A stretch of DNA of 64,000 bases from an uncultured virus (IMG/VR IMGVR_UViG_3300028377_000003). Taxonomy: Duplodnaviria; Heunggongvirae; Uroviricota; Caudoviricetes. Each line of letters begins with the position of its first letter. Positions within the stretch are counted from its first letter, which is position 1. The notes beneath the pieces are model-generated. The model was not told the DNA's origin, ran no database searches, and worked only from the letters and a program-made list of their open reading frames with translations. Made by a program: the position numbers and the translations under genes. Where the stretch lies: positions 1-64,000 of IMG/VR virus record IMGVR_UViG_3300028377_000003, one strand, 5' to 3'. This document shows positions 5,525 to 62,970 of this stretch, one piece after another.

Positions 5525-5564
5525 CTTCACTAACCTATACCCTAGTGGTGGGAACCCGTCAAAA
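5525..5564 (-). promoter_or_regulatory. Conserved promoter copy
   Basis: TTTTGAC-N12-CTAGGGTATAGGTTAGTGAAG. Confidence 0.85.
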
Positions 5565-15567: not shown

Positions 15568-16059
15568 TTACAGGTAATAGACCGTCCAGTCCAGCCCACT
15601 GGCTTCGTACAACGGCTTTACGTCCGCTTCCCAATCCAACCCACCAAGGCCACAGCCGACTTGTACCGTGACGAACCCCCACCTATCGGCCCGGTCCCCT
15701 AACGTGCGCTCGATACCGGCCAGCGCCTCTTCGATAGCCTCGACGTCGGCTTGAGCTTTTTCCCGACTCCAGAACTCTTGGGTTAGGGCGTTGGCGATGT
15801 AAAGCGGGGGCGTACCCTCTTCCAGCTTTGGACTGGTGGGCGAGATCACGACACCTCCTAGAGTGACCTCCCCACCGGCTTTGCCGTCACAGAAATTCTT
15901 GTAGGTGTCAAAGACGTAGGGCCACTTGTCCTTGATGACCTTGGCGATGCCACTCCCCATGTGGCCCTGCATGTTGCACCCGTGCATAAGGAGTGTCGGT
16001 TGGGTACGCTCTTCCAGCGCCGCGAAAACGTCGCCTTGGATTTCGTTAGAGATCGTCAT
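15568..16059 (-). CDS. Macrodomain (ADP-ribose hydrolase, TARG1/DarG-like)
   Basis: GDVF...HGCNMQGHMGSGIAKVIK...GCGLGGLDW signature. Confidence 0.9.
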   Translation of the reverse strand: MTISNEIQGDVFAALEERTQPTLLMHGCNMQGHMGSGIAKVIKDKWPYVFDTYKNFCDGKAGGEVTLGGVVISPTSPKLEEGTPPLYIANALTQEFWSREKAQADVEAIEEALAGIERTLGDRADRWGFVTVQVGCGLGGLDWEADVKPLYEASGLDWTVYYL

Positions 16060-27044: not shown

Positions 27045-30000
27045 TTAATCTGAAAATTGCGTTCTCAAGAAAGCACTTGGTAACCCTCCATACGCGGCCA
27101 CCACGTCGTCCACCCGGTCCATAAGGGCAATTGTTTCTTCAATGCGGCTTATTACGTCTATAAGGTGATCGGTGTCGCCAGCGGTGAGTTCTCTGTCGTC
27201 ACGTTTGCGGTAGTAAAGCCAGCGGCTCAGCACCTGGTGCCCACCCACATGAAACTCCCACACTTCTTTTGAAACGTCCGCGATATATGTTGAGTCGTTT
27301 ATGTACAGACGTCCCATGCCTTCACCTTCTTGGATGTACTTATTTCGTTCTGTTACTAAAAGGCTTTTCCCATGCTTGAAGCGCGCTTTCGTAGTTGGTG
27401 GCGCAGTCTTGCCTAGATGTAGGACAAAGAGGTGCTCGCCAAGGATTACCAACTCTTCAAAGAGGTCCTTTCTAAGAGCTGGTGGAATCCTCGGAAAGTC
27501 CAACTTGAGAGCCTCGAAATAGGCTTCTCTGTATGTGGGGGAGTGAAGGACGGCATAAATATAGTGCAGGCAGTCTAACGCCGGAACGTTCCAGCTTGAG
27601 GGCACAATATCATCCTGTGAAAGATTGCATGCTTTCTCTCGCGACTGATCGCCACCTTCCTTTGCCAAATGCAGTGGAAATGCATAACAATTTGTGCCTC
27701 TGCTCGGCGAAAGAAAGATGACATCCATGAATGTTTCGCTGATAAACGCATGAGCAAAGCTCTGATCACGAATGATTTTGGATGCTAATAATACAGGCCC
27801 TCTGCCGATATGTCCGTGTAACGCTGTAACACCCCTAGTCCAAAGATTGTTGTCGTAGTATGTCCATCTTAGATCAAATGGGCGATAAGCGTACTCGACT
27901 ACTTTCGCTGGGTCGAATTGGTAATCGACTGGATACTCAGCAAGATTACGTTCTGCTTCCGTGAGATTGAGTTCTTTGTCCTCTTGCGCAGCTTTAAGCT
28001 TTTGCCTCTCGATCTTCTGCCGGTGGGCCGCTAGTTTCGGAATTACATCTTCCCGGTTATAGCTGATCAACAAAGAGTCTTTCCCCGGCTTTCCAGCTAC
28101 GTTAGAGAATTTAAAAAGATCGTCGAGTTTCACAAAGGACTCATATACTTCTTCGTGATTAGCAACATAATCTTCGTCACGTGGAATGAACAACCAGTAG
28201 GGTGCGCGAAGGTCCAAATCGAAACTGGTGACTCCGTCAACATTTGAGCGGAGTAATGAGTACTTGGCTTCGCGTGTCCCAGTAATAGCGCGATAGTGAA
28301 CCGATGTACGAGATGAATCACCACCTGTTTTTACCGCAAGCGTTACAGAAGTAGCCTCAGTAATAGGGGGGAAGACATTGTCATCAGGCTGAACTCCATC
28401 TGTAGTGGCAGTTGTGAGTTTGCCGGTCTCTTGAAGGTCTAAGCAGTCTATGAAGTCAAATGTATCAAGATGATGTCGGCGGATCCCTCGGTGGATACGT
28501 CCAGAATAGAAAGTGTTATTACTCACTAAGGCCGCAATTCCGAGGTTGGTCAGCTCTATCCAGTGTTCAGCTATCCGCCAAAATTTTATGTAGTCGTCAT
28601 CTAGCGGCTGGATGTTACCTTCATGAGCACGGACGGGATCTTTATAAGCGGCAACGAGGGCATCGATGTGGGGGTTTTTGTTCTTTGTACTGCGGCTATA
28701 TGGAGGATTACCTACAATCACAGTGAGAGCTGTTTCCCCTTTGACTTTACTGGCCTCGCGAGATTCGTCCGTTAGATTAACTATCCTCGTCCAGTCAAGC
28801 TGAGGCGTGCTGGTCAGTGGGGCCTCTAGCGCATTCGTCAGGAATACATTTATACGGCTATCGTCGGTAGGTTCATATCCCGTTGCTTGCAGAGTAAGTG
28901 CGAGCTTGATGTGACATACGGCATATGGAGCAACCATTAGCTCGAAACCGTGGAGGCGAGGCAGTAGTGAGTCCTCCACGTATTGCGACCAGCTATCAGC
29001 TTCGAGCTTTTTGGTGGTGTCCTTCGATGCAGTACAGAATTCATGATGGATTACCTCAATCACATGCTTGAGGAATGTTCCCGTTCCCGCAGCTGGATCA
29101 AGGATTTGAACCAGAGGCGAATCCGGGTCTGCGACTGGAGGAATGGAGATTTTGGGGTGGCGTTCGACGTACTCCGCCCAGGTGGTGGTGTCAGCAAGCC
29201 CAAGAGGGAGGTGGAGGTTCTCTTTTAAGTGCTGATTTACGGACTCGACGATGTGATGGACCAGCGGATCAGGGGTATAGTATACGCCCCGTTCCTTTCT
29301 CGTTACTGGATCGTACTCCTGCAAAAATGGTTCATAAAAGTGTATCACTGGGTCGGTAGAGATCGTTGGTTCGCCATCTTTGTGGCCGAATATCTGCTCT
29401 ATTTGAATGCGATCAAGGAAGTTGGCGATATCCTCCAATAGCCATTTCTGCTTGGGATCGAAGTTCTCTTGCAGCACGGTCTGAAAGAAACTTCTGAGGA
29501 ATGGGCTGGTAGTCGGCATGTGGTCGAGAGCTGTCTCACGCGTAAAGCGATCCCCCGATACTTGAAATTGGTCTTTTGATATCCACCGAGCTGATAGAAG
29601 CCCATAGGCAAGTGTTTGCGCGTACGCATCGGCAAACTCCTCCTCTGTTTGGTTGTGGATAAGCGCAGCTGTAAATGCTTCATATAGCTTGCACATAGGT
29701 CCATCTTCTTTCTCCGCTTTAAGCTGACGGATAGCTAGGCGTCGAAGATAACGGGCCCTATACGCCAGTTCTTGAGCTAACTCGGTCTGGTTTTCCACCT
29801 CTGCCCGGCTTACCATAAAGAACCGCGAAAGCATGGAGATTAGCCGCGCCGGCCCGATGTAATTGGCTCCTTTCTTTAACAGCTTACCCCGGAGCTCTCG
29901 GTCCCCTTGCCAGAGACCGACCTCGAGCGATGTCTCATCCTTTTGGTCAGTGGTCGGGTAGATAACCAAGACGTTGTGGAAGCGATTGTACTTTTGAAGT

Positions 30001-31100
30001 CTATCGCGAAGTGTATCCGCATCTTCGCCATTTTGGGGCAGGTACACTATGTAACCGAGGAGTCTGTTGGCGACATCATGAATCAAAAAGCCCTTGAGTG
30101 GGTTTTCAAATCCATCCGGCAAGTTCCGGTCCGGATCGATCCCAATATCATGATCACTTAGCAAGTGTCTCCGCGTGACTCGTGCTTGATGGTCATCTGC
30201 TTCGAGACCAAAACTCAGAGCGATTTCCTCGAGGAGATTCGTTATCACATCTTCAAACGATTCTTCAGTCGCTTGACCGCTCAGGACATCCAGGAGCTTT
30301 CTAGCTTCGCGGCGCTCTTCTTCGCGCGCGAACGCCTGTGACCACTTGCCTTCTTGAAGCGGGGCTACGAATCGATGAAAGAGTTGTAGCGTGTAGTCCT
30401 GCTTTAGCTGTGGCTCCCAGGTCACAGCCTCTTGACGTACAGAAAAGCTCTCCATCGGTGGGTGGTCGATCTCAGAAGAGCCCTGAGCGTCCTCCCCTTG
30501 CCGCACGAAATGGACGAGGTGTGCGATGCGCTCGTCGGAAGCACGGTCGTCACGAACCGATAGAACAATCATCGTTTGTTCAGGTCTTCCTACGGGGACG
30601 TACTCTCCGCGTTTGTCCGCGAACGCTTTCTGCTCGTATTTGGCGAATCCCTTCAGTGCCGCTTGGCCAAAGCGATCGAGGGCGTCCTCAATTAGATCCA
30701 ACTTCGCTGCTTGAGGAAAGAGTCGCTTTGATTCCTGCAGCAACTCGCGGCCGGTGGAATCAAATTCGATGATGAGAGTGTGGAAATCGCGACCGTTATC
30801 CGACGGTGCTATATAGTGAACCTTTTCCGGCAGATATTGTAAGGCGCGGTGGTCGGCCTTTAACACCTTATCGCGAGGCCAACCGCTAGGTTCTGCACCT
30901 AGAAGTCGTCGTAGCAAATGACGCGCAAAACTGATCGAGTCCGCGCTGAGGTGCGAACCTCCATCGTTCCGCACCGGCTTGGCCCCTGGGCGTGCGAACT
31001 GTGTTGAGGATCGTGTTGGCCCATCTTCCTCATCTGGCGCAGGTGCGCCAGCGTCGGCAGTAGGATTCTCGAAAAATTGACGAAATTCTTGGAGGTTCAT
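27045..31100 (-). CDS. Large N6-adenine DNA methyltransferase with Type ISP-like C-terminal specificity region
   Basis: GVYYTP, LDPAAGTGTF (motif I), GNPPY (motif IV), YAYRPFD, DFPRIP, VWEFHVGGHQVL; no helicase motifs seen. Confidence 0.88.
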   Translation of the reverse strand: MNLQEFRQFFENPTADAGAPAPDEEDGPTRSSTQFARPGAKPVRNDGGSHLSADSISFARHLLRRLLGAEPSGWPRDKVLKADHRALQYLPEKVHYIAPSDNGRDFHTLIIEFDSTGRELLQESKRLFPQAAKLDLIEDALDRFGQAALKGFAKYEQKAFADKRGEYVPVGRPEQTMIVLSVRDDRASDERIAHLVHFVRQGEDAQGSSEIDHPPMESFSVRQEAVTWEPQLKQDYTLQLFHRFVAPLQEGKWSQAFAREEERREARKLLDVLSGQATEESFEDVITNLLEEIALSFGLEADDHQARVTRRHLLSDHDIGIDPDRNLPDGFENPLKGFLIHDVANRLLGYIVYLPQNGEDADTLRDRLQKYNRFHNVLVIYPTTDQKDETSLEVGLWQGDRELRGKLLKKGANYIGPARLISMLSRFFMVSRAEVENQTELAQELAYRARYLRRLAIRQLKAEKEDGPMCKLYEAFTAALIHNQTEEEFADAYAQTLAYGLLSARWISKDQFQVSGDRFTRETALDHMPTTSPFLRSFFQTVLQENFDPKQKWLLEDIANFLDRIQIEQIFGHKDGEPTISTDPVIHFYEPFLQEYDPVTRKERGVYYTPDPLVHHIVESVNQHLKENLHLPLGLADTTTWAEYVERHPKISIPPVADPDSPLVQILDPAAGTGTFLKHVIEVIHHEFCTASKDTTKKLEADSWSQYVEDSLLPRLHGFELMVAPYAVCHIKLALTLQATGYEPTDDSRINVFLTNALEAPLTSTPQLDWTRIVNLTDESREASKVKGETALTVIVGNPPYSRSTKNKNPHIDALVAAYKDPVRAHEGNIQPLDDDYIKFWRIAEHWIELTNLGIAALVSNNTFYSGRIHRGIRRHHLDTFDFIDCLDLQETGKLTTATTDGVQPDDNVFPPITEATSVTLAVKTGGDSSRTSVHYRAITGTREAKYSLLRSNVDGVTSFDLDLRAPYWLFIPRDEDYVANHEEVYESFVKLDDLFKFSNVAGKPGKDSLLISYNREDVIPKLAAHRQKIERQKLKAAQEDKELNLTEAERNLAEYPVDYQFDPAKVVEYAYRPFDLRWTYYDNNLWTRGVTALHGHIGRGPVLLASKIIRDQSFAHAFISETFMDVIFLSPSRGTNCYAFPLHLAKEGGDQSREKACNLSQDDIVPSSWNVPALDCLHYIYAVLHSPTYREAYFEALKLDFPRIPPALRKDLFEELVILGEHLFVLHLGKTAPPTTKARFKHGKSLLVTERNKYIQEGEGMGRLYINDSTYIADVSKEVWEFHVGGHQVLSRWLYYRKRDDRELTAGDTDHLIDVISRIEETIALMDRVDDVVAAYGGLPSAFLRTQFSD

Positions 31101-31257
31101 ATCACATCCTGAGTGAAGCAATTATCGAGCGTCGTACTGCTTATTGATTAGGAGTCGTTACATCGGCAGCGACGACACCAAGGCTGCGGAACTTTACCAG
31201 CTCAGTCACCGCTCCATATTCCATACGTACCATAGAGCAAGGGGGCCGTCAAGTCTA

Positions 31258-34244: not shown

Positions 34245-34736
34245 ATGCTACTGATTAAAGCTGTCCAATTCGCCAGTGAAAAACACAAGGGTCAAACCCG
34301 CAAGGTGTCTGGGTTGCCTTACGTTATCCACCCCATCACGGTGGCGTTTCTGTTGGCGGACAACAAAGAGTCCAAGCGGCTTGAAGAATTGATGGTCGCC
34401 TGCCTCCTGCACGACACGCTGGAAGATACGGACACAACCTTCGAAGAGTTAGCCAGTGAATTCACGCCGCTGGTAGCGTCGTTGGTTCACGAACTGACGT
34501 CGGACGACGATGAGATTGAGCGTATCGGCAAAAACGAATATCTCACCAAGAAAATGACCGGCATGTCTAGCTATGCGTTGGTCATCAAACTTGCCGATCG
34601 TCTGTCAAACATCATGGACAGTCCGACTGAATCGTACCGTGAAGATACTGCGGATATGCTGAACACGTTGGAAACGAAACGCAATCTATCCGGGAGCCAA
34701 GTCAAGATCGTCGGTGAGATTCGCAAACTGCTGTAG
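34245..34736 (+). CDS. Small alarmone hydrolase-like HD protein ((p)ppGpp hydrolase/Mesh1 family)
   Basis: HKGQTRK..GLPYVIHP, LHDTLEDT, IKLADRLSNI. Confidence 0.88.
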   Translation: MLLIKAVQFASEKHKGQTRKVSGLPYVIHPITVAFLLADNKESKRLEELMVACLLHDTLEDTDTTFEELASEFTPLVASLVHELTSDDDEIERIGKNEYLTKKMTGMSSYALVIKLADRLSNIMDSPTESYREDTADMLNTLETKRNLSGSQVKIVGEIRKLL

Positions 34737-34744
34737 GGTCGGAC

Positions 34745-35293
34745 ATGATTTTATTCATACAAGGCGCACCGGGGGTGGGTAAAACCACCCTCGCACATAG
34801 CTTGCTAGAACACTTCAGGGATAGCGTGGTGATCGAGGTCGATCACATCCGCCAAGCATTGCCAGAAAACGACTGGACAGACGACTGGCAACATACCGAA
34901 GCTATCCAACAGGCTCTTGTGGGCGCTTTAGAGCGTCAAGGGCGTGATCTGGTGATGCTTGTGGACACGTTTTACCAAGGCAAGATCGTCGCCCCCGTGG
35001 ACGTTATGAAAGAGGAGGGGGTGACGCATAGGGTAGTGTCTCTGGTTGCGAACCGGGAAGCGCTACAGGCCCGTATGGCCCGTATGGACCGTCGTGACCA
35101 CGGGTTCACAGACATTGATGCGGCGGTTGAGGTCAATGCCGATATCTGGGAGTTCCGGTGTGATAGCGAGATATGTATTCACACAGGGGATCTGGATGCA
35201 GATCAAGTGTTCAACATGGTGGCGGGGATGCTTGAGCGGGGGTTCGGCCTGATCCCTAAAACCGCTTGCTTAACTTCCGAAGCCCCCGAATGA
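34745..35293 (+). CDS. P-loop small-molecule/nucleotide kinase-like protein
   Basis: GAPGVGKTT Walker A, EVDHIR, lid ARMAR. Confidence 0.8.
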   Translation: MILFIQGAPGVGKTTLAHSLLEHFRDSVVIEVDHIRQALPENDWTDDWQHTEAIQQALVGALERQGRDLVMLVDTFYQGKIVAPVDVMKEEGVTHRVVSLVANREALQARMARMDRRDHGFTDIDAAVEVNADIWEFRCDSEICIHTGDLDADQVFNMVAGMLERGFGLIPKTACLTSEAPE

Positions 35294-35350
35294 AATCAAA
35301 AAAATCGAATTTGGTCTGCACCAAAAATTTGGCTGATTTACCCTCAAAAT
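35259..35350. repeat. About 90-bp A-tract-rich element, copy 2
   Basis: Matches 7922-8014 (17-bp identical core plus collinear blocks). Confidence 0.75.
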
Positions 35351-35357
35351 GAGGGCC

Positions 35358-35954
35358 TCATTCGTCTTCCATAAGCTCATTCAACTTCGCCCACATCCCA
35401 TTGCGCTCTATGCCTGCAAGGAATTCTTCCTCTGCGGACTTAACATACCCCGCGTCCCTGTGCGACATTTCTAACGACGCACGCCCTTCCACCCCTCTTA
35501 GCAACTCAGCTACTTGCGTCCTCCGGTCACGCCGAACCGAAGGCGATGAATAACCGTCACCATCGAGGTCGAGGCCCTCCATAGATTTCAATTGGGGTTC
35601 CTCGGGTTCCATAGGTTCCTTCCCCTCGGCGCGGTCGTCGTGATCACGGGCCATTTGCATGATTACGGACCGGTTCACATGGAAATCCTCTTCCACCTCT
35701 TCCACCTCATCCTCAGTACGCCCCAGCTTGACGAATTCGCTCAAGAGAAGGCGGGATTGGACAGAGGTGAGCGTCCTATCTTTAAGGGTTTCTACGTTAA
35801 CCTCGATTCTGATCTCTTCGCCTTCGATAGACACTTGATTGAGGCTATACACATACATCCCCTTAAAGAGGATATCTTCGTTGATAAGCTCCGCCACTTG
35901 ATCCTGTAACTTGGTCTGTAAAGACGATAGCCATTTGAGTTCGCGCAGGTTCAT
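35358..35954 (-). CDS. Acidic hypothetical protein
   Basis: 198 aa, ATGA-coupled. Confidence 0.75.
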   Translation of the reverse strand: MNLRELKWLSSLQTKLQDQVAELINEDILFKGMYVYSLNQVSIEGEEIRIEVNVETLKDRTLTSVQSRLLLSEFVKLGRTEDEVEEVEEDFHVNRSVIMQMARDHDDRAEGKEPMEPEEPQLKSMEGLDLDGDGYSSPSVRRDRRTQVAELLRGVEGRASLEMSHRDAGYVKSAEEEFLAGIERNGMWAKLNELMEDE

Positions 35955-36661
35955 GTAAGTTCCGTTCCGTTTTTTCGAAGCAGGTAATCGTCGCTGACGC
36001 TTTTGAGTTGGACCCGGCCAATCAGGAGATCACGCCGCTCCTCTGTAGGTCTAACTACGACCCCTTCCCGGATATGCGCCTCTTCACCACTGACTGTTTC
36101 AGCGCCGGTAGTTAGTTGAAGCATTTTGGCTTTCGAAAAGGGGCCACGGTAAAGTACCGGCACCCGTTCGAATCCGCGCTCTTCACAAAACTGCGTGAGT
36201 TCGTCGTCGTTGAGGTACCGACCGTGTTGAGGTTGACCCTCGTACACATCGAACACGCGGAAACCTAACGTCTCATCCGATTTTGTGTGTGCCCCGTAAC
36301 CCAAATCTTGGACCCCTGAGCCAAACACCTCGCCAATAACGAAGATCGGCACCTCGTAATCGGCCAACCTTTCCAGTGCGTTGAGGTGCCGGGCTACCCG
36401 AAGGTACAGGTTGTTTGCGTTCTGTTCGGCCTCCGGTTTGAAAGCCAGCCCTTTCGACCCCAGCCCTTTCGAACATACGACGAGACGCCCGTAATCTTGG
36501 TAGGTCAACTGCTGAGGGATCACACCAATCTGGCACCATGAGTTATGAACTAACACACCATTGGCGAAAAAATTATGATTCCCACGGACCTGTAAGTCAT
36601 ATCGATCCGAATCATGACTTTCCAGTTTTCTGATACTCTTGATCTTGACCTTTTTAGGCAT
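35951..36661 (-). CDS. Split intein C-fragment (40 aa) fused to the C-terminal half of an RNA ligase
   Basis: YDLQVRGNHNFFANGVLVHN|S (blocks F/G); then ligase motifs IGEVFG, FRVFDV, REGVVV, LKSVS. Confidence 0.93.
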   Translation of the reverse strand: MPKKVKIKSIRKLESHDSDRYDLQVRGNHNFFANGVLVHNSWCQIGVIPQQLTYQDYGRLVVCSKGLGSKGLAFKPEAEQNANNLYLRVARHLNALERLADYEVPIFVIGEVFGSGVQDLGYGAHTKSDETLGFRVFDVYEGQPQHGRYLNDDELTQFCEERGFERVPVLYRGPFSKAKMLQLTTGAETVSGEEAHIREGVVVRPTEERRDLLIGRVQLKSVSDDYLLRKNGTELT

Positions 36662-37556
36662 CTTTTACTCCTATATATTCATCTAACTTATCGCAACAAT
36701 CTTCCCAATCTTCGTTAATAATATCCTTCTCCCACAAAACCAGAACGTCGAATCCAGCTTCGTTTGCTAAAGTTACACGTTCGGCATCATAATCCCATTT
36801 CTCTTGAGCAGTCATACTCTCTTGAGGGTAATTAAAAACATCATCCGCATTGTAAATTTCAGGGTTGGCGTGCCAATAATCACCATGCACCTCTATCAAC
36901 TTGGTAGTTCCTTCTACATGGATGTCGAAAAACGCCTTTTTATCGCCATCTTTATCTAAGTGAAACTCCACGGAACAAGGGATTCCTATTTTACTCAAGT
37001 ATTGGTACACTTGTTGGTGGATGGAAGAGAATACCATTGACTGAGCAATCTTGGAGCGATACCAGTCTAGAGTCCATAAGTTCCTAGTACCATACCTTTC
37101 TTCATAAGATTGCTTAATCTTCTCCTTAACGCTTTCCCTTTGAAAAACATTGGTAATACCCTCTTCTTCTAGCAGCCTTGCCTCCCACTCGTGTCTAGAA
37201 GGGTGATCAGCACAAAAATTATGAGGGGAACCATATTTATCCAAGTGTGTGTCTTTAGCCCTCTGCCTAGCTTTAGGCATCTTTTTAGCTGCGGAGATGG
37301 ATCTGGTTTCGATCCCAAATTCTTTCATTTTCCTATTAATAGTAGCCACTGAAGATAATCCCAATTCTTGCGCAATGTGTGACATGGCTTTCCCTTGTTG
37401 AACATAATGTGCGTAAAGGAATTCTTCGGTTAGGGTGGAGTCTCGCCACTCCTTCCAAGCTGAACATCTAGATAAATGTCCACTTTTTGTGTATTTGCTT
37501 TTTAGAGGTAAGGTAGTATTACAATAAGGACAATTCCAATCTTCATAGTCTGACAT
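36654..37556 (-). CDS. Free-standing Vsr-like (EDxHD/DUF559-type) homing endonuclease
   Basis: VEF...FDI...IEVHGDYWH...YD...GFDVLVLWE; N-terminal Zn finger/HTH and KYG-type repeats; AT-rich. Confidence 0.82.
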   Translation of the reverse strand: MSDYEDWNCPYCNTTLPLKSKYTKSGHLSRCSAWKEWRDSTLTEEFLYAHYVQQGKAMSHIAQELGLSSVATINRKMKEFGIETRSISAAKKMPKARQRAKDTHLDKYGSPHNFCADHPSRHEWEARLLEEEGITNVFQRESVKEKIKQSYEERYGTRNLWTLDWYRSKIAQSMVFSSIHQQVYQYLSKIGIPCSVEFHLDKDGDKKAFFDIHVEGTTKLIEVHGDYWHANPEIYNADDVFNYPQESMTAQEKWDYDAERVTLANEAGFDVLVLWEKDIINEDWEDCCDKLDEYIGVKDA

Positions 37557-37621
37557 GGTTCCCTTTTCCTGTAGTCAATGAACTACAGAGAAAATCCACA
37601 AAAGGATAACCATGCGTCTTT

Positions 37622-38407
37622 TCAGTCCCGATCAAGCAAGCAAATCTCATCCCCTTTTAATTGATCAACTCGACGGTAGCATTTCAACTCAGGCAACCAC
37701 ACAGGATGATTCCCCGTTAAAACCACAACAGCATCTTCCATCTCCAATTCATACCAATCACCCTCATTAGGATCTTGAGAGTAACCCTCAACAGACTCAA
37801 AAGAGATATCTCCGGTCTTCACATTCATACTTTTAACATGACAAGGGATCTTGTTTTCTACAATCTCTGAGATAGTTAGAGTTCCATGTTCCAACGTCTC
37901 TATTTCGGTGTCCTTGTCCGCACATCCGTGGATCTTCTCCGTGATCACGACTTCTTCACCCTCTTTGAGGACACCGGGATACCGTTTGATATTTTCGATA
38001 TCGTATTTCATGCACCGGCGTCCACCCGCAGCATAGACTTCACCCGACATGGAGGCGGGGATAGGCGGCTCATATTTCGTGATACCCAAATCTTCGGTCA
38101 CGTCGTCGCCCTCTTCCCAACCGTCCTTTGCCGGGTAACAGATACCTTGCGACAGGACGCCTCGGAGTCGGATAGCTTTGACGCGGTTGTGATCTGAACC
38201 GGCAAGGCGGCCCTCAAGTCCTAGCTCCTTCAGTATGTCTTGCGGCACCAAAGATGCTTCCGGGATGTAGGCAGCCAGATCACCCGTTTCGAACTGGTCT
38301 TTCATCACGATGGACTGGTAATCCCCCACCTGCGCTACCTCCAGACGATCCGCATCAGGATGTTGTTGGATGGTTAATCGTTCTACGAGTACTTTGTGCT
38401 CAGACAT
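37622..38407 (-). CDS. RNA ligase (Rnl5/DRB0094 family) N-terminal half fused to a split intein N-fragment (100 aa)
   Basis: HPDADRLEVA, IRLRGVLSQG, TEKIHG|CADKDT (block A), LTGNHPVW (block B). Confidence 0.93.
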   Translation of the reverse strand: MSEHKVLVERLTIQQHPDADRLEVAQVGDYQSIVMKDQFETGDLAAYIPEASLVPQDILKELGLEGRLAGSDHNRVKAIRLRGVLSQGICYPAKDGWEEGDDVTEDLGITKYEPPIPASMSGEVYAAGGRRCMKYDIENIKRYPGVLKEGEEVVITEKIHGCADKDTEIETLEHGTLTISEIVENKIPCHVKSMNVKTGDISFESVEGYSQDPNEGDWYELEMEDAVVVLTGNHPVWLPELKCYRRVDQLKGDEICLLDRD

Positions 38408-38477
38408 ACGGCCTCCATTTTATCAATACGTACCAATCTTAATTGGTACCGTAAGACCTAAGAGGCTGTCAAGGGTG

Positions 38478-38801
38478 CTACTTTTCGATAAGGTAAGCGA
38501 AGCGGTCGGAAGGGGACTGAATCTTTAGGGGCTTGTAAACGACGCTGATACTGCACGTGGAAAGGCTTTCCCACACACGTGAAGCCTCGCGTCCAATGAG
38601 GTCTTCGATGCCCCCAGCGCCCATATACGTAATGTAATCGCACACGTCGTCGCCGGTTGGTTCAGACGGGAACCGCTCTTTGTGGTAGGAACGTAAGCAA
38701 GACAGAGCATCCTTGTAATGGACGTCATATTCGTAGACGCCGCCACTGTCCCGCAGCATCTTGATCACGACCCTGTGGGGTATCTTACTCTTCGTCGACA
38801 T
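38478..38801 (-). CDS. Hypothetical protein
   Basis: 107 aa in the minus-strand run. Confidence 0.6.
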   Translation of the reverse strand: MSTKSKIPHRVVIKMLRDSGGVYEYDVHYKDALSCLRSYHKERFPSEPTGDDVCDYITYMGAGGIEDLIGREASRVWESLSTCSISVVYKPLKIQSPSDRFAYLIEK

Positions 38802-39108
38802 CTGAAAACTCCGATATCTCGACTTCAGATATATCTTCGAACAACGTCTTGATAGGCCCTAGCTGTTTTTCGATACGGTCGAGGCTTGCATCAGCAGCGC
38901 TTTGCAACGCTTCTAAGTCGTTCTGAAACGACCCTTGCAAGAGGTCCAACTGAACGTCCCTCATGGTTGTGTGCAAGCTACGGATGTATTTCAGGAGGGC
39001 GATCAATTCTTTGGTAGATAGCTTCAGCGCCTTTTTGCCCGATTCATGGGCCTTCAGGGCGCGAGCTAATATCTGATCACATTTCTGAAGCGATAATCGG
39101 TCCGACAC
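38785..39108 (-). CDS. Coiled-coil hypothetical protein
   Basis: 107 aa, helical pattern. Confidence 0.6.
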   Translation of the reverse strand: MSDRLSLQKCDQILARALKAHESGKKALKLSTKELIALLKYIRSLHTTMRDVQLDLLQGSFQNDLEALQSAADASLDRIEKQLGPIKTLFEDISEVEISEFSDVDEE

Positions 39109-39150
39109 CGTACAGCCCTCGCTTGGGGTAGGCGTCGATTATGCCTCGGG

Positions 39151-39453
39151 TCACGTATCGTAGTCAACTCCCCTCCGTAACACGACCAGTAACAGCCCAC
39201 TAGCTACGGGCACTGCCTCATCGGATACGGGGTAAGTGTCCCGGATTATTTGCCGGATGCGTTCGATATCAGCACCTTCTACTTTGGTATCCAACCGACC
39301 AAAACCTTCGTTGTACACATCATACAGGTCTTGGTCGTCAGATGCTTCCCAAACCTCGTAAACCATCCCGGAACCCGCTAGGTTCCATCTGGCGGTCACT
39401 AGCAGGTCCGTTTCGGGGTGAGTCCTCTTGAGTGTCTTGCCTTCCGTGGCCAT
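39151..39453 (-). CDS. Hypothetical protein
   Basis: AGGAG RBS. Confidence 0.65.
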   Translation of the reverse strand: MATEGKTLKRTHPETDLLVTARWNLAGSGMVYEVWEASDDQDLYDVYNEGFGRLDTKVEGADIERIRQIIRDTYPVSDEAVPVASGLLLVVLRRGVDYDT

Positions 39454-39463
39454 CGCACTGCTC

Positions 39464-39787
39464 CTAGCTGTACATCATTTCGAAAAAGTTGTCGGGCGAC
39501 ATGCCCTTGGGTCCCACTTGTTCTTCACCGGTCAATACATTGACCAACACGGGGCGCTTTTCTTCTTGTTCTTCGAGAAGCTCTTTGACCCGACGAAAAA
39601 CAGCACCTTCAAGGTGGGGGCGGCTGTATTCCAGAACGCCCGGAATCTTGGCGGCGCAAAAATCGAATTCGTAAATGAGATCCATGTGCCCCTCAACATG
39701 ACTCCGACTCAATTGGCGGGAGGTCACATCTTGGATGTCCACAAACTTGTTTGCAATCTCTTCGATGATTTCTTGTCGCCTTGTCAT
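39464..39787 (-). CDS. Hypothetical protein
   Basis: AGGAG RBS; promoter at 39830-39866. Confidence 0.7.
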   Translation of the reverse strand: MTRRQEIIEEIANKFVDIQDVTSRQLSRSHVEGHMDLIYEFDFCAAKIPGVLEYSRPHLEGAVFRRVKELLEEQEEKRPVLVNVLTGEEQVGPKGMSPDNFFEMMYS

Positions 39788-40773: not shown

Positions 40774-41180
40774 GGGGACGCACTGGTTTCGACCGGAGCT
40801 GACGAAAATGGACGTCGCGTTCTGGCGGGTGTATGTGACCGCCACAAACAAAGACATACTCGTTCAACTGACGAAACTCAGTACGCAGCGGCAGCATAGC
40901 CGTTCGTCCCACCTCGGACTCCGATAAAAGGACCGGGACGTAAATGGTCGGAGATCCCGCTTTACCCTTCGGTGACTAGGGTACCTCATAGAAGCCAGTC
41001 TATAGGTGGAGGTTGTAATCACTAACCCCTTGAGGGTAGTAGACTAGAGGCAAGCAAAGACGACCGCTCGACTTGCCATCAAATCCCTTCGCAGGGTAAT
41101 AGAGCAAATGGTCGCTATGTACGTAAGACGACGTTTGTGAGTAGAGTTCCGACACGAGGGTTCGACTCCCTCCGTCTCCA
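40774..41180 (+). ncRNA. ssrA: tmRNA; tag (A)DETQYAAAA*
   Basis: 5' GGGGACG...GGTTTCGAC; acceptor stem GGGGACG/CGTCTCC with G3-U; T-arm GAGGG-TTCGACT-CCCTC; tag frame 40870-40899 after AACT; CCA not encoded. Confidence 0.93.
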
Positions 41181-42855: not shown

Positions 42856-44340
42856 ATGTATCTGAGTAAGCTCTACGGTCATTCGCTTACGCTCCTAACC
42901 GACCTTTACCAACTCACGATGGCCTATGGCTATTGGAAACAAGGGCGGCAACACGACGAAGCGGTCTTCCATCAGTTTTTCCGACAGAACCCTTTCGGGG
43001 GAGGTTACGCAATCGCTGCCGGGCTAGGCACGCTCGTCGAATACATGCGTGATTTCCATTTCGATTCCGAAGACCTCGAATACCTGTCGAGCCTTCAAGG
43101 GAACGACGGCAAGCCCCTGTTCGAACAGGGATTCCTCGATTACCTCAAACACCTCACTTTCACCTGTGACGTTGACGCCGTACCAGAAGGTTCGGTCGTT
43201 TTCCCACACGAACCTCTGGTCCGCATTCGTGGCCCGCTCATTCAGTGTCAGTTGTTGGAATCGGCCCTCCTGAACATTATCAATTTCCAAACGCTTATCG
43301 CCACCAAATCAGCCCGCATCTGTGAGGCCGCCAAAGGTGAGCCGGTGCTGGAGTTTGGGTTGCGTAGGGCGCAGGGGATTGACGGATCCATCATGGCGTC
43401 GAGGGCAGCTTATATCGGAGGCTGCTCTGCTACGTCCAACGTACTCGCTGGAAAGCTACTGGATATTCCGGTCAAAGGGACACACGCTCATTCGTGGATT
43501 ATGTCCTACGACTCGGAAATGGAAGCCTTCGAAGAGTACGCTGAGGCCATGCCCAACAATTGCGTGTTCCTTGTGGACACTTACGACACGATCGAAGGTG
43601 TCAAAAACGCTGTGAAAGTGGGCAAGAAGCTCCGTGAACGCGGCCATGAAATGGTCGGTATCCGGTTGGATTCCGGGGACTTGGCCTACCTCAGTATCGC
43701 GGCTCGTCGCATCTTGAATAATGCCGGGTTCGAAAACGCTAAAATCGTGGCGTCGAATGGATTGGATGAGCACACTATCAAGTCGCTCAAGTCACAGGGC
43801 GCTTTGATTCGCCTCTGGGGTGTAGGCACCAACCTCGTCACAGCGAAGGGACAACCGGCGTTGGGTGGTGTGTATAAGCTATCCGCTATCAAGCGGGAAG
43901 GGGGCGAATGGGAACCCCGCATCAAGCTGAGTGAACAACGTATCAAAATCAGCAATCCCGGTTACTTGCAAGTGCGTCGGTTTTTCGACGGCAATGAGTA
44001 CCGGGGCGACATGATTTACAACGAGCACCAAGGCGATCCCGGTACGACTATCGTCGATCCGATGGATAACACTCGCCGCACGAAATTGGATTTCGACCAA
44101 TCCATAGACATGCTACAGTCGGTCTTTAGAGGCGGCTTGGGCGATTCTGTGGTTGAAACGTACCAAGAAGAACCGTTGGATGCTATCAAGCAACGTGCCC
44201 AGCGTGAAAAGGCGCGTTTCCACGGTGGTGTCCGCCGTTTCACCAACCCGCACCAATACCCGGTCGGTCTGTCTAAGCCGCTCGACGAATTGCGTACCCA
44301 ACTTATTCTTGAAGCCCGTGGTCACGGAGACGACGAATGA
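42856..44340 (+). CDS. pncB: Nicotinate phosphoribosyltransferase
   Basis: [53 protein letters not shown]. Confidence 0.95.
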
Positions 44341-46283
44341 AGTACGTCCGTATAGGAGCCGCTTCCCTCAACCAGACACCTCTGGATTGGGAAGGAAATA
44401 TCGACCGAATCATCAAAGCCACGGAAGAAGCCTCCGCCAAAGGCGTCCAGATGCTGTGCCTCCCTGAGCTTTGCATCACGGGCTATGGTTGTGAGGATAT
44501 GTTCTTATCCCCCCACGTCCATCAACGAGCACTTAAAGCCTTGGATAAACTCAAGGATCTCGGGGACTTCGGGATGCTTACGGTGGTGGGTCTTCCGGTC
44601 GTCTACGGCAACGGGATCTACAACTGCATGGCCGTGATACAAAATGGCCGCATCGAAGGTCTTGTCCCCAAGCAAAATCTCGCCAAGGATGGTGTGCATT
44701 ATGAGCATCGCTGGTTCAAGCCGTGGCCTCCGGGGCAAATAGGTTCTGTTTACATCCCCCAAATAGGGAAAGTTCCTATCGGGGATTTCGTATTCGAAAC
44801 GCGGAACGGGATTCGGCTTGGCTTTGAAATTTGTGAAGACGCATGGGTCGCTGACCGGCCCGGATCCCACCTTGCTCAAAGAGGTGTGGATGTGATTTTC
44901 AGCCCGTCTGCTTCCCACTTTGCTTTCGGCAAACAAAAAGTGCGGAGGCAATTCGTGGTTGAAGGTTCGAGGGCCTTTAGTTCGGCCTACGTCTATGCCA
45001 ACCTCCTTGGCAACGAATCCGGGAGGCTAGTATTCGACGGTTCCACTTTCATCGCATCGGGTGGTGAGGTGCTTGTGGAAGGTGAGCGGTTCTCGTTTCG
45101 GGACCACACTACCGTATGCGCAGATGTGGATCTTGACACACTCCACATGCAACGTTTCAGCCGGGAAGGTTTTAGGCCCGAGGATGAAGACGAACGCAAC
45201 GTTTTGTCGATCGGAGGTACGACCACCGAAAAACTCCGACAAAAGGCGCAGCCTGCTGTCCCCCAGAACCTGTCCAAGTTCGAAGAATTCAGCCGCGCCG
45301 TGACCTTGGGTATGTTCGATTATTACCGCAAGTCCGGCGTCCGGGGCTACGTCGTATCCCTGTCCGGTGGTGCTGATTCTTCGGCGGCTGCCGTACTGGT
45401 ATACCTCATGAGTAAGTACGCAAAAGAGGCATACACCAAAGAGGAACTTGCCGCCAAGCTGGCGCATAACGGCTATACAGGCATGTGGCCCGAGCGTCTT
45501 TTGACATGCGTCTATCAAGCAACACACAACTCCTCGGAAACAACCCGTGAAGCCGCTGAGATGGTCGCTAAGGCTATCAACGCCAAGTACGTAGAGCTTG
45601 ATGTAGACCCTATTGCTATGGCTTACGAGGAGCTAATAGGGGACGCCTTGGGTATCGAATGGGAATGGGAAAAGCACGATGTGGTTCTCCAGAACATTCA
45701 AGCGCGCACCCGGAGTCCCTCAGCGTGGATGATAGCCAATGCCGAAGGCAAGATTCTGTTGGCGACCTCCAATCGTTCGGAAGCGGCGGTCGGATATGCT
45801 ACGATGGACGGAGATACTTCGGGCGGCCTGTCACCTCTCGGAGGCATTGACAAAGCCTTCTTGCTTGAATGGCTGCAGGAAATGGAAAAAGAAATCCCGG
45901 AACTTAGGTACGTCAACAACCAAAAACCTACGGCGGAACTCAAGCCGGAAGAGTACGACCAGACTGACGAAAGCGACCTCATGCCTTACGAGGTGCTGGA
46001 CCTTATCGAAAAGCGAGCTATCCGGGACAAGCTAAGTCCGGTGGAAATTTTCGAATGGTTCCAGTACAACACGGAACACGAAGCGGTGAAGCTCGTGGAA
46101 TGGATCGAAAGATTCTTTCGACTGTGGTGCCGCAACCAATGGAAACGCGAACGCTACGCACCGTCGTTCCATTTGGACGACGAAAACTTGGACCCCAAGA
46201 CGTGGTGCCGTTTCCCTATTTTGTCAAGTGGTTTCGAAGAAGAACTAGAAGCCCTTCGATCGAAAATCAAAACCTCTGATTAG
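44337..46283 (+). CDS. nadE: Glutamine-dependent NAD+ synthetase
   Basis: Nitrilase-like domain ([18 protein letters not shown]) plus [27 protein letters not shown]. Confidence 0.95.
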
Positions 46284-46292
46284 GAACGCCCC

Positions 46293-46916
46293 ATGAATGC
46301 ACTCATCGTAGTCGACATGCAAAACGATTTTATGGATGACGGTGCCTTAGCGGTTCCGGGATCTCGTGACTTGGTAGAAACCATCAACGAATTGATGGAA
46401 AGCCCCGTTTTCGATCTCGTCGTTGCCACCCAAGATTGGCACCCCGCTGACCACGGCTCCTTCGCTTCGAACCACGAGGGTAAGGAACCGGGGCAAGTTA
46501 TCGAACTCGACGGTCTGGAACAGATTCTCTGGCCCACCCACTGTGTTCAGGGTTCGGAGGGTGCGGAATTCGTCGATGGTTTGAATACCGACCGGTTCGA
46601 TACCGTGTTCGAAAAGGGTATGAATCCGCTGGTCGACTCGTACAGCGGTTTCTACGACAACGGGCACCGTGAAGACACCGGCCTTGCGGACTACCTCCGT
46701 GAGCAAGATATCAAATCGGTCTACGTCTGTGGCGTAGCAACCGACTACTGCGTCAAGTTCACGGTATTGGACGCTTGCAAAGAGGGCTTCAACACGAAGC
46801 TCATTTGGGATGCCACCGAAGGCGTCGAGTTAAACGAAGGCGACGTCGGTGTTGCCTTGTCACAGATGCTGGACGCCGGGTCCGGGATCGTCAAGAAAAA
46901 GCTGGTATTCAAATAA
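46293..46916 (+). CDS. pncA: Nicotinamidase
   Basis: VVDMQNDF, QDWHP.DH.SF, WPTHCVQG, DSYSGF, GVATDYCV. Confidence 0.95.
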   Translation: MNALIVVDMQNDFMDDGALAVPGSRDLVETINELMESPVFDLVVATQDWHPADHGSFASNHEGKEPGQVIELDGLEQILWPTHCVQGSEGAEFVDGLNTDRFDTVFEKGMNPLVDSYSGFYDNGHREDTGLADYLREQDIKSVYVCGVATDYCVKFTVLDACKEGFNTKLIWDATEGVELNEGDVGVALSQMLDAGSGIVKKKLVFK

Positions 46917-47596
46917 TGGAACACGTCAACGACGAAAACCACATTTTGAAATGGGTGGATATCGATCCCGATGAACGGGTTGGAATCGTCGGAACAGCGA
47001 GACGAAAGGGTCATCGGGTTGGGATTTACGGTGGCAGTTTCAACCCCCCGCACATGGGGCACGTCTATATGCTGTTGAGCGTGCTTCAGACGCAAGATTT
47101 GGACCAGCTATGGATTTTGCCGTGTGCTGACCACCCGTTCAAAGACCACCTTGCTCCGTTCGAGCAGCGGGTCGAGATGTGTCGTCTGGCGTTCGAACAT
47201 TTGAATGGCGTTCATGTCCTCACCGTCGAAGAGAAACTCCCACAACCCAACTACACGGTTCAGACGCTCACCGCGCTCAAAGAGGCGTGTCCCGAGGTGG
47301 ACTTTTCTTACATCATCGGTGGGGATCTGGTAGAGGAAATCCCCGAATGGAACAATGCGGAGGGTCTGTGTGACTTGGCTCAAATCATCGTGGTTCCACG
47401 ACAAGGGCATCCGGTGGTTGATGCACCCGACATTCTCGGGGACTATACCGAAGTGGATCTCGGCTTTCAGTTGCCTGCTATTTCGTCGTCAAGGATCATC
47501 AAAATGATGCGGCGAAAGGCTTCAGTGGCGGGGTTCCTCGACAAGATGGTGCTGGGATACATCAATTATTACGGTGTGTACGATGATTCGAAATAG
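46916..47596 (+). CDS. nadD: Nicotinate-nucleotide adenylyltransferase
   Basis: GGSFNPPHMGH (HxGH), YTVQTL, IIGGD, ISSS; TAATG overlap with pncA. Confidence 0.93.
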   Translation: MEHVNDENHILKWVDIDPDERVGIVGTARRKGHRVGIYGGSFNPPHMGHVYMLLSVLQTQDLDQLWILPCADHPFKDHLAPFEQRVEMCRLAFEHLNGVHVLTVEEKLPQPNYTVQTLTALKEACPEVDFSYIIGGDLVEEIPEWNNAEGLCDLAQIIVVPRQGHPVVDAPDILGDYTEVDLGFQLPAISSSRIIKMMRRKASVAGFLDKMVLGYINYYGVYDDSK

Positions 47597-56656: not shown

Positions 56657-58279
56657 TTACAGATTCCCGTTGATGAACTCGTTGAGCAATGTAGGCACCG
56701 AAGTGTTACATCCCACGATATCAATCATACCGGGATCCTTGGGGTCTGCGATGGTGTTGCGGCTGGCTTCCATCGCCACAACAGCTACCCGTGACCCATT
56801 GTTCCGGGACTGCCGGTACTGATCAAGCGCCTGCTTGGGGTGGATATCCCCATACCACGTTTCGCTATCCGTGTAAATAACGAAAGCGTCGAAGTCCTTT
56901 GCCGTCCGCTTTGCCCATACCATCGGAAGGGCACAGTCGGTACGTCCGAAAGGAATGCCAGAGATGCTTTTGATCACATCGTCCAGTCGCTGACGGGGCG
57001 AAATGTTCAGAGGGATGAAATCGTGGGAAAAGCCCATGATTTCATAGTTCTCTTCGGTCCGCATCACCGTCATCGCCATCGCGGCACTTACTTCACGGGG
57101 CGTCAGACCTTCCAGTCCTGCCACCGATCCCATACCCATCGAACCGGACACGTCGAGAGCAAGGCAAATGTTCTTGCCGGTAGGCTCCACGAAATCGAAA
57201 GCGGCGTAGAACGCATCGTCCAGAGCATCCGTGATCTTCGGAACCGGATTCCATGTCAACGAACCCCGGAAACCTCGGCCCCTAGCGTAAGTACGCTGGG
57301 CATTCAAAAGATTGAGAGGGTGAACCCGCGCACGCTTGAGGTATTCCCGGTCCGTTAATCGCTCGACAACAATTTTCGTAGCATCCGACGTGTTCGTCAG
57401 GAGGCCCAAAGAGGTCATCTTGGACAGGTTACGGATCGTCGCCCACAGAGGCATTTTCTGTAGGAGTTGCTCCCAGACTTTGACGTCGTTGAGGAACTCC
57501 GTGGGGATGCACTCACGAGGCAAATTATGGTTTTCAATCAAACCGATAAGCTGCTCGACCGAACCCGCTTGCTTCGCACGTTCGAAAGCCCACACCCTTT
57601 TGAGGACTTCATCGGATTCCGCGTCGGAAACCAGTGTCCCCTGTGCCGCCCAATGATATAGGGCGTCACGGGTATCGTTTTCCGGCTTGACATGCGCCTT
57701 GAGCAACATGTCACGGTGTGACCAACCATTGCGGTTCTGATATTTGATCATCTGATAGGCCACGTCATCGTCAGACTTAGCCTTGTACCAGTTCTCAAAC
57801 GCCCGCATCGTGACACGTCCCCACCCGCCAAATGGCTTGATGAACTCTGCCAGTTGCGTGAGGTGGTAAAAAGTACGGCACACTTGTGGGACTGCTTGGG
57901 CCGCAGCACGCCGGGTTTCAACGGATTGCTCCGTGCCGTCATTGAACTTCAGCGCCAAAGCCAGTGCAAAGATGGCCGGATCGTTTCGGACAGCGCGACC
58001 GCTATCGGAAATATCGACGATGCGTTGTACCGTTGCGGGGCCAGCTACCCGGAGGCAATCGTTCACGGCTTTCGCATTGTCCACCGTCAGGTTGCGCTCG
58101 GTGACGTAATACGACCCACCTTCGGAACCGAGAATCAAAAACCGATCAAGTCGCTGCTGCATGTCGACTTCGTAACCAAAGCCTCCAGCATTGTTCTTGA
58201 TCTGGTCTGCGCTAATCGGCTCATCTTGGGGAGTCGCACCCGTCTTCTGGTCTGTCTTGAAATGCTTCGAATAATCCAT
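56657..58279 (-). CDS. rsr: TROVE-domain Ro60/Rsr ribonucleoprotein
   Basis: NNAGG..Y, RFLILGSEGGSYY, KYQNRNGWSHRD, vWA LALDVSGSM, GRTDCALPM, YTDSETW. Confidence 0.93.
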   Translation of the reverse strand: MDYSKHFKTDQKTGATPQDEPISADQIKNNAGGFGYEVDMQQRLDRFLILGSEGGSYYVTERNLTVDNAKAVNDCLRVAGPATVQRIVDISDSGRAVRNDPAIFALALALKFNDGTEQSVETRRAAAQAVPQVCRTFYHLTQLAEFIKPFGGWGRVTMRAFENWYKAKSDDDVAYQMIKYQNRNGWSHRDMLLKAHVKPENDTRDALYHWAAQGTLVSDAESDEVLKRVWAFERAKQAGSVEQLIGLIENHNLPRECIPTEFLNDVKVWEQLLQKMPLWATIRNLSKMTSLGLLTNTSDATKIVVERLTDREYLKRARVHPLNLLNAQRTYARGRGFRGSLTWNPVPKITDALDDAFYAAFDFVEPTGKNICLALDVSGSMGMGSVAGLEGLTPREVSAAMAMTVMRTEENYEIMGFSHDFIPLNISPRQRLDDVIKSISGIPFGRTDCALPMVWAKRTAKDFDAFVIYTDSETWYGDIHPKQALDQYRQSRNNGSRVAVVAMEASRNTIADPKDPGMIDIVGCNTSVPTLLNEFINGNL

Positions 58280-62256: not shown

Positions 62257-62970
62257 ATGTCGCTAAAAAAGCAACTGATCAAATTGGGCAAGGTGCGCAA
62301 AAACCTTCGTCCCCATATCCGACCGGTTTTGGCTGAACTGAAAAAGCTGGCGTCCGTCACCGTAACTCCGAAAAGGGGTTTGCCGGATTCGCCACGCTTT
62401 GCCCAGCACCTGTCTGGCCTCAAGAGTGATCACCACTCTTTTCAGTTGGTTGAGATATCGACGGAAAGCAAAACAGTTGAGGCCGCATGGGTCACATCCA
62501 CACGTCCCGGAAGACTGGATGTAGCGATGGGAGGCATGGTCTACCAATTTGAAGGCCGCAGCCCTGAAGATGCAGCTAAAGATTGGGCCAGAAAATATGC
62601 CACGACCCGGAAACAGGCAAACAACGGCCTGTATGAAAAAGCATCGGAGCTTGCCCGCAAGCATGTCGGGGCGATTGAGCAAGGGTTCGAAAAGCTCCTG
62701 AAAGACGCCAAGAAAAGCCTTGCGAAACAAGACCTAGAGATCAACATCTTTGGGCGCAACACATCATGGCTGAGTTATCGTAACCACGGTAGCGACGGGC
62801 TTCTTGTCGGCGGGCAACTCAAGATCACAGATAATGCGGAATATCCCCGGTCCAAAGAGGAGATCGGCGATGCTGTAGTAGCCTCCGGTGTCACTGATTG
62901 GGCTTATGTCCGACGTGGGAAAGGGGCAGGACAATGGATCGTGGAAATCGGCAATTCCGACCGTATCTAA
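62257..62970 (+). CDS. Hypothetical protein with N-terminal QLIKLG peptide
   Basis: MSLKKQLIKLGKVRKNLRPHIRPVL. Confidence 0.8.
   Translation: MSLKKQLIKLGKVRKNLRPHIRPVLAELKKLASVTVTPKRGLPDSPRFAQHLSGLKSDHHSFQLVEISTESKTVEAAWVTSTRPGRLDVAMGGMVYQFEGRSPEDAAKDWARKYATTRKQANNGLYEKASELARKHVGAIEQGFEKLLKDAKKSLAKQDLEINIFGRNTSWLSYRNHGSDGLLVGGQLKITDNAEYPRSKEEIGDAVVASGVTDWAYVRRGKGAGQWIVEIGNSDRI

Follow-up and report, generated by a model that had tools for sequence, protein, structure and literature searches.

How can a phage make a working RNA ligase when the gene is broken inside its catalytic motif, with the two pieces in separate genes and a third gene lodged between them? The question is raised by a locus in a stretch of 64,000 nucleotides from an uncultured virus of the Caudoviricetes (positions 1 to 64,000 of IMG/VR record IMGVR_UViG_3300028377_000003; this whole stretch is called the window below). 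The interruption is very probably a selfish split-intein cassette in a phage nick-sealing RNA ligase, whose two precursors would be joined by protein trans-splicing and whose own endonuclease would carry it into uninterrupted alleles. All three genes are on one strand, in the order N-terminal ligase part plus N-intein, endonuclease, C-intein plus C-terminal ligase part. The first-pass annotation had described this anatomy, and the open reading frames, with their lengths, stops and junctions, are as it gave them (aa, amino acids):

38407-37622, minus strand: N-gene, 261 aa, consisting of a 161-aa extein ending TEKIHG, a 100-aa N-intein and a stop
37925..38407, minus strand: N-extein, residues 1-161 of an Rnl5-type RNA ligase, with the OB-fold module and motif I TEKIHG (Lys158)
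37622..37924, minus strand: N-intein, 100 aa and stop, with Cys1 and block B Thr70/His73; net charge -14
37553..37615, minus strand: hairpin in the 65-bp spacer 37621-37557, pairing the endonuclease ribosome-binding site and start codon
36654..37556, minus strand: endonuclease open reading frame, 300 aa, free-standing, Vsr-like (EDxHD-like)
36661-35951, minus strand: C-gene, 236 aa, consisting of a 40-aa C-intein, then a 196-aa extein and stop
36542..36661, minus strand: C-intein, 40 aa, with His-Asn at its end; net charge +4
35951..36541, minus strand: C-extein, 196 aa and stop, with the +1 Ser and ligase motifs Ia, III, IIIa, IV and V

The cassette, comprising N-intein, hairpin, endonuclease gene and C-intein, is 1.38 kb long and is inserted three residues past the catalytic lysine. 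It is more AT-rich than its surroundings, as was first remarked: the two exteins have a G+C of 0.54, against 0.38-0.43 for the intein halves, the spacer and the endonuclease, and the drop is limited to the cassette. The window genome has a single ligase of Rnl5 type and a single intein of the cassette's family. Its contig is 129,690 bp, and the N-gene protein is recorded from 6 contigs in four sources. Since the longest of these is 230,823 bp, the window is probably part of a large phage genome. The runs holding the locus carry the label lake water metagenome.

Are the stops that divide the gene real? Erroneous stops and RNA splicing had been singled out at the start as ways in which the split reading could fail. 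The stops are not a one-off error. A 200-kb metagenome contig of a near-identical strain (99.87% identity) shares the stops and differs by 2 SNPs and by a 3-nt in-frame deletion in the endonuclease; contigs of run X2, which may share data with that strain, span the entire stretch, and both stop codons are also found in pieces from run X4. An IMG/VR contig that is 100% identical across 35300-39000 may be the same data. It could still be supposed that the halves are joined at the RNA level, by an intron or by translational bypass, or that the locus is an assembly error or a pseudogene. Vsr-like endonucleases do occur in group I introns too (PMC2677866; for this and the other published sources compared here, statements refer to the part of the text that was available), and it was contigs, not raw reads, that were examined. 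However, no intron or other RNA family is matched by Rfam in 35000-39500, up to E 1, the C-gene is equipped with a ribosome-binding site and start of its own, the exteins are without decay, and of 70 related junctions 69 are closed by a stop and the remaining one leaves its contig. This supposition is already largely refuted and must be considered extremely improbable. No joint skipping the cassette was present in contigs of four runs, data which cannot show absence. Scans for promoters and terminators gave numbers near chance (7 vs 4.4 and 4 vs 3.3).

What the two exteins would make together is a complete ligase. On the TIGR02306 profile the N-gene accounts for positions 2-171 (E 1e-43) and the C-gene for 178-341 (E 5e-30), the coverage extending to position 341 of 341 with no C-terminal domain beyond motif V. 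The N-terminal OB module is present (PF21189, 50 bits vs a cut-off of 27, E 4e-13), the C-extein matches PF09414 (E 2e-20), and the closest solved relatives of the N-gene are the Naegleria RNA ligase structures (E 2e-13). The motif residues, located by eye, are T156, K158, H160 and G161 in the N-gene, and S64, K65, E111, F175, E199 and K220 in the C-gene. The exteins were also aligned separately to 147 intact homologues, a column counting as conserved at 95% or more. They abut, no well-occupied column being lost between them, and 95 of the 97 conserved columns are kept. The exceptions are one Leu to Ile and, at the +1 position, Thr to Ser; 143 of the 147 intact homologues have Thr there (KxHG|T). 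No sign of decay is seen in the aligned residues. Profiles, conserved columns and motifs agree on the Rnl5-type host initially named.

The spliced product is predicted to be 161+196=357 aa, the length foreseen in the first-pass annotation. One point of that annotation has to be corrected: natural empty alleles read KxHG|T and not KIHG|S. In Deinococcus Rnl ten residues are essential (PMC1807946), and their counterparts, mapped by eye, are divided between the genes: the N-gene has four of them and the C-gene the other six, and neither half could be active alone. Like DraRnl (DRB0094, TIGR02306) and NgrRnl (PDB 5cot), the window ligase has an N-terminal OB module, a TEKxHG motif I and motifs Ia-V, ends shortly past motif V and would be ~357 aa long once spliced. 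It differs from them in being encoded by two genes and in its predicted dependence on protein splicing; Ser follows its motif I, where Thr is usual in close relatives. DraRnl and NgrRnl seal 3′-OH RNA nicks in duplexes and, going by family, the window ligase may do likewise.

The intervening halves have what splicing would need. The N-intein opens with Cys and carries a TGNH block B (T70, H73), and the C-intein terminates in H39-N40 before the +1 Ser; the sizes of 100 and 40 aa fall inside the fractured-gene ranges of 88-105 and 33-54 aa. The intein_Cterm profile is matched at 34 vs a cut-off of 15.6 bits (E 2e-8), the intein_Nterm profile weakly and under its cut-off (16.9 vs 24.5 bits, E 0.0096). 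Profile matches of the N-intein are NrdJ-1 (E 4e-11) and DnaE inteins. Against solved DnaE N-inteins the N-half gives E 6e-5 with some 26 of 74 residues identical by eye, and the polarity, acidic N-half and basic C-half, is the same in the window pair (-14, +4) as in DnaE inteins. These resemblances, and the close one of the C-half to a DNA-ligase C-intein already listed in 2009, qualify the first-pass idea of a new orthogonal split intein, for which the pair is at best a candidate. A model of the complex of the two halves scores 0.93 vs 0.02 for the best control, its runs agreeing in at least 98% of contacts with a partner pLDDT of at least 89; the mark applied to such models is reached by 116 of 157 solved pairs and by 2 of 215 mismatched pairs. 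Similar split-intein complexes have already been solved, and the model for that reason indicates likeness only. The class 1 splicing route is established intein chemistry. Profiles, conservation, fold and the many related loci described below all accord with the fractured-gene split-intein interpretation with which the analysis began, and trans-splicing of the two halves is very likely indeed. Fast splicing in vitro is on record for four fractured-gene inteins (PMC7090010).

Might the intein halves instead merely hold the ligase pieces together non-covalently, or only cleave, like the Aeh1 nrdA fragments? An intein-free complementation precedent is cited in PMC2677866, and in a related subclade (7 of 38 cassettes) the block-B His is Asn. 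The window copy, however, keeps every splicing residue; all 150 of the best relatives have Cys1, and all 29 aligned C-inteins have His-Asn. Moreover, with the interruption falling within motif I, an intein that stayed in place would be expected to block the active site. Non-covalent assembly is thus very improbable, and splicing in trans is the preferred reading of these halves.

The free-standing gene between the halves specifies a 300-aa protein that matches a PHROG homing endonuclease (E 4e-10). When 27 intervening open reading frames are aligned, Asp211, Glu222, Gly225 and His229 are invariant and Asp257 nearly so; D211, H229 and D257 are the equivalents of Asp51, His69 and Asp97 of Vsr, and E222 is at the position of Phe62. 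An endonuclease profile finds Vsr (1cw0, E 7e-4) and I-Bth0305I (3r3p, E 3e-3), and the proteins of these same two entries are the top four fold matches (E 7e-4 for 1cw0, 4e-3 for 3r3p) of a structural model with pLDDT 87.5 and pTM 0.48; a single-sequence search of the PDB gave no match. The N-terminal region is helical, with HTH_50 under the cut-off (E 0.003) and DUF7487 at it. Profile, conserved residues and fold agree on the Vsr-like endonuclease originally put forward. The protein is EDxHD-like and lacks the first Glu of the strict EDxHD motif, for which we take the column of His180 to be the site. With I-Bth0305I and Vsr (3r3p, 1cw0; PMC3239194) it shares a C-terminal Vsr fold, the catalytic Asp/His/Asp and an N-terminal helical region. 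Unlike I-Bth0305I, which belongs to a group I intron, it is flanked by split-intein halves, and it has His180 in the first-helix Glu column. The five endonucleases nearest to it in the alignment of 27 are all from KxHG-type hosts.

The spacer hairpin in front of this gene has a z of -2.24, with 2 of 200 shuffles as stable, and a z of -4.1 on a 72-nt window; z is below -2 at the spacer position in 16 of the 26 loci folded. At the other end, the endonuclease stop overlaps the C-intein start by 8 bp (36654-36661), and the GGAG ribosome-binding site of the C-gene sits within the last codons of the endonuclease gene. Hairpin and overlap correspond to control features set out in PMC2677866. Control by the hairpin is inferred, as is ligase activity.

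Has the cassette moved? The first-pass annotation had proposed a search for intact alleles, and they are plentiful: 99 of the 120 listed N-gene homologues are intein-free, and in the other 21 KxHG is followed by Cys and the protein stops after a further 85-138 aa. Two of the latter have N-inteins identical to the window's at 100 of 100 residues, next to exteins identical at only 128 of 161 (P0004) and 94 of 126 (P0005), the two exteins matching each other at 88 of 126. On the C-side, P0125 has a C-intein identical at 40 of 40 residues and an extein identical at 148 of 196. The empty counterpart is P0330, an intact 357-aa protein in the same cluster as P0125. It agrees with the P0125 C-extein at 195 of 196 residues, the sole difference being at +1 (Thr empty, Ser filled), and it matches P0004 at every residue from 40 to 161 (122 residues). 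As the pair differs only at +1, the Ser codon would travel with the cassette. On this evidence, which is unusually direct for sequence data, the cassette appears to have moved recently. In IMG/VR a degenerate pattern written for the identical N-intein matched only the near-identical contig. For an assay of the endonuclease, the intein-less allele at this position that had been suggested as substrate is borne out, and its proposed sequence KIHG|SW is not, the empty site carrying Thr (KIHG|TW).

The sequence of events envisaged is as follows. Two precursor proteins would be translated separately, and their acidic N-intein and basic C-intein would associate through opposite charges. Trans-splicing by Cys1, the block-B His, the C-terminal His-Asn and the +1 Ser would then yield the 357-aa ligase with motif I restored. 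The hairpin would hold endonuclease translation low; the endonuclease made would cut the uninterrupted ligase alleles of co-infecting phages, at KxHG|T or close to it, and repair would copy the whole cassette, its own Ser codon included, into the cut allele. I-Bth0305I cuts empty alleles for its intron (PMC3239194). Endonuclease-driven homing of the cassette is likely, at a lower level of confidence than the splicing.

Several observations weigh against this account. Scored separately on TIGR02306, the ligase halves reach 149.4 and 104.5 bits, the cut-off being 151.15. In the endonuclease, His180 stands in a column where most relatives, like the first helix of Vsr, have Glu, and its activity is not assured given this residue; near relatives likewise have His or Asn in this column, so decay of the endonuclease is not implied. 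That P0004 and P0125 are one locus rests on each having a single 44,427-bp contig. The alleles are mosaic, P0330 being identical to the window N-extein over residues 1-55 and P0124 differing from the window only in residues 45-109; because phage alleles are mosaics, recombination must be common and could also carry the cassette. One alternative is that the protein is spliced but that the cassette spreads by ordinary recombination, with an endonuclease that is inactive or cuts elsewhere. The mosaic alleles P0330 and P0124 speak for it, as does a cassette-bearing contig of run X4 that departs from the window sequence 20 nt into the C-extein (a divergent patch at window 36336-36522, identified by hand with P0124). 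So do the replacement of the common Glu by His180 and the frequent loss of the endonuclease, 9 of 38 cassettes having gaps of only 102-502 bp. It does not sit easily with the filled and empty alleles, which differ only at the +1 codon on the C-side and are identical over 122 residues on the N-side, a swap so precise that it fits site-directed homing. Conservation of Asp211, Glu222, His229 and Asp257, and the intact reading frame, hairpin and overlap, are also unfavorable to it. Spread by recombination alone is rather unlikely, and homing by the endonuclease is preferred. P0124 was considered as a separate insertion and set aside as a recombinant patch of a window-type allele.

Is the window locus an isolated case? 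Loci found by means of N-intein alignments were gathered from viral (38), metagenome (39) and genome (2) sequences and, with L005, make 80 rows. KxxG|Cys is found in 70 of them, the junctions whose stops were counted above, and none is contiguous; the other 10, without a detectable KxxG|C junction (contig ends, offset junctions, unrelated hosts), were left out of junction counts. There are 38 distinct complete cassettes, 29 of them with gaps of at least 750 bp and 9 with the short gaps already mentioned. Three host ligase types are cut at the same place after motif I: Rnl5-like (PF09414, phrog_968), Rnl1-like (PF09511, phrog_562) and ATP-dependent DNA ligases (PF01068, phrog_114). Searching 1.84 billion representatives with a profile yielded 3,236 matches. 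Among the best 150, which were examined, Cys1 is present in all 150, 132 come directly after KxDG or KxHG, and 148 end no more than 15 residues past the N-half (maximum 25). The 146 newly listed relatives include 49 with the Rnl5 OB module and 6 with the T4 Rnl1 domain. The search for contiguous-intein relatives called for at the outset found none among the 70 junctions, none among the best 150 of the 3,236 matches, and none among 77 longer-protein candidates (query residues 150-261), the last being weak evidence. The profile was built from split halves and favors split forms, and contiguous relatives may for that reason lie lower in the list.

Within the family, 35 of the 38 complete cassettes pair halves of opposite net charge. 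In L021, L035 and L054 the polarity is reversed on both halves, the N-half being slightly basic and the C-half acidic, and these three are candidates for orthogonal pairs. The Asn that replaces the block-B His is found in L050, L054, L055, L057, L060, L061 and L067, with the window keeping His; 6 of these 7 cassettes have +1 Thr, and by a rough pattern the subclade takes in about 45 of the best 150 representatives. DNA-ligase loci of the family carry +1 Cys. In an unrooted tree of 40 N-inteins, 11 of whose 37 branches are well supported, the DNA-ligase inteins form one supported clade (96/92), itself part of a supported group (95/95) that takes in most Rnl5-like hosts; at least four changes are required for the Rnl5-like hosts. 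As the tree is unrooted, no direction is claimed for the host switches. L057 is labelled Rnl5-like in the tree, and its C-extein matches another RNA ligase family, phrog_548.

The N-intein has no match in 50,697 phage records (cultured phages), all ligases among the matches listed for cultured-phage ligase queries (25 and 60) are single-piece, and two Microbacterium phage ligase queries, aimed at the ligase intein of the actinobacteriophage survey cited below, found no intein among the best 60 of 379 and of 341 records. Prokaryote genomes hold one full cassette, on a 15-kb contig of a metagenome-assembled genome that may be viral; a second apparent locus there was rejected as a 14-residue chance match.

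Other arrangements were met along the way. In L005 (3740-6353) and L006 an intein of this family breaks a T4 Rnl1-type ligase at KRDG|C, and the Vsr-like endonuclease is encoded there on the other strand. A second split intein, 22-26% identical and with native +1 Thr, occupies the same Rnl5 site (L039 3039-5360 and L041 3036-4853; P0019, P0020, P0034, P0039, P0052 and P0105); in L039 and L041 both its halves are net acidic. L010, L012, L067 and L068 are endonuclease-free split cassettes with gaps of 86-167 bp, corresponding to step III of the 2009 model (Dassa et al., PMC2677866). The 1.7-kb gap of L055 (about 3825-5533) has an additional open reading frame, and that of L070 (3881-4540) has a 220-aa one without a Vsr-like motif.

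The persistence of endonuclease-free split forms (L010, L012, L067) could be taken to mean that the split intein is now a domesticated, conditional switch for RNA repair, responding to stress or infection stage, and the presence of Ro60/TROVE, tmRNA and NAD salvage genes in the window could be read in the same way. However, intact alleles are the majority, 99 of the 120 listed close homologues, and the empty allele is nearly identical to the filled one, as expected of a parasite. Domestication is accordingly very unlikely, if slightly less so than non-covalent assembly, and the selfish cassette is preferred. For the family at large, the balance tips towards a large, only-split group that homes as a three-part cassette, is specialized on motif I of the ATP-dependent ligase superfamily and switches hosts.

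How much of this was known? By every class feature that can be read from sequence, the locus is a member of the fractured-gene class of Dassa et al. 2009, whose hosts are gp41-1, gp41-8, NrdJ-1, NrdA-2, IMPDH-1, DnaE, DNA ligase and terminase (PMC2677866). Three same-strand genes, intein-half sizes, a Vsr-like endonuclease, opposite charges and a 5′ hairpin are common to both, as is overlap of endonuclease and C-intein (8 bp here, 6-69 bp there). The spacer differs (65 nt here, 27-51 there), and an Rnl5-type RNA ligase is outside their host list. The TATAAATA element, found in 10 of their hairpins and not universal there, is absent from the window hairpin. Their supplement has a DNA-ligase C-intein, listed as C-half only and with +1 Cys, that matches the window C-intein at 22 of 37 positions by eye; because of this match the ligase intein family was probably glimpsed in 2009 as that lone C-intein. 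Fractured loci were framed there as gene-fission intermediates, whereas the large family and the empty and filled pair point to a cassette that moves whole.

There is also more recent work to consider. The InterPro entry IPR021122 is presumably the Rnl2/REL ligase domain. Among the intein hosts of an actinobacteriophage survey is an ‘RtcB-like RNA ligase (IPR021122)’; the survey also lists inteins with antisense Vsr-like endonucleases inside them (bioRxiv 10.1101/2025.01.02.630785), and the only split intein named in its available part is in a nucleotidyltransferase. An intein in an ATP-dependent RNA ligase may thus already be in print via that preprint. No report of a split intein in such a ligase was found in the literature, subscription journals and InBase being outside the coverage. 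The architecture is known; the host type and the breadth of the family are apparently undescribed so far.

Other genes of the window deserve mention. Adjoining the ligase on the opposite strand (34245-35293, plus) are an HD-domain protein and an AAA_33 P-loop kinase, for which a part in end-healing or alarmone removal is possible. A phage-encoded tmRNA with the tag DETQYAAAA lies 2.4 kb away (40774-41180, plus), and no tRNA genes are found in the contig. Beyond it is an NAD salvage cluster (42856-47596, plus) with nicotinate phosphoribosyltransferase and glutamine-dependent NAD synthase, and also isochorismatase-family and cytidylyltransferase-like proteins. A Ro60/TROVE protein is encoded at 56657-58279 (minus), a Macro domain at 15568-16059, and a 1358-aa type ISP-like methyltransferase/specificity protein at 27045-31121 (minus). 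Several open reading frames, at 466-1410, at 62257-62970 and elsewhere in the genome, are unannotated and have a common start resembling L..QLI(R/K)LG. The Ro60/TROVE protein, tmRNA, P-loop kinase and NAD salvage genes would fit a general repair and counter-defense kit.

The locus extends natural split inteins to RNA-repair ligases, and adds to the fractured genes an empty and filled allele pair and one intein family spanning three ligase types. With an empty allele and its filled twin one residue apart, joint homing of a split intein and a free-standing endonuclease can be tested directly. Four fractured-gene inteins are among the fastest splicing tools (PMC7090010), and a broad family, diverse at +1 and in charge polarity, offers a practical pool of candidates for such tools. 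If the view of the family taken above is true, it would provide well over 100 natural split inteins, using Ser, Thr or Cys at +1 and including pairs of reversed charge and variants without the His, and fractured genes would be lasting elements that actively spread, not transient stages of gene fission.

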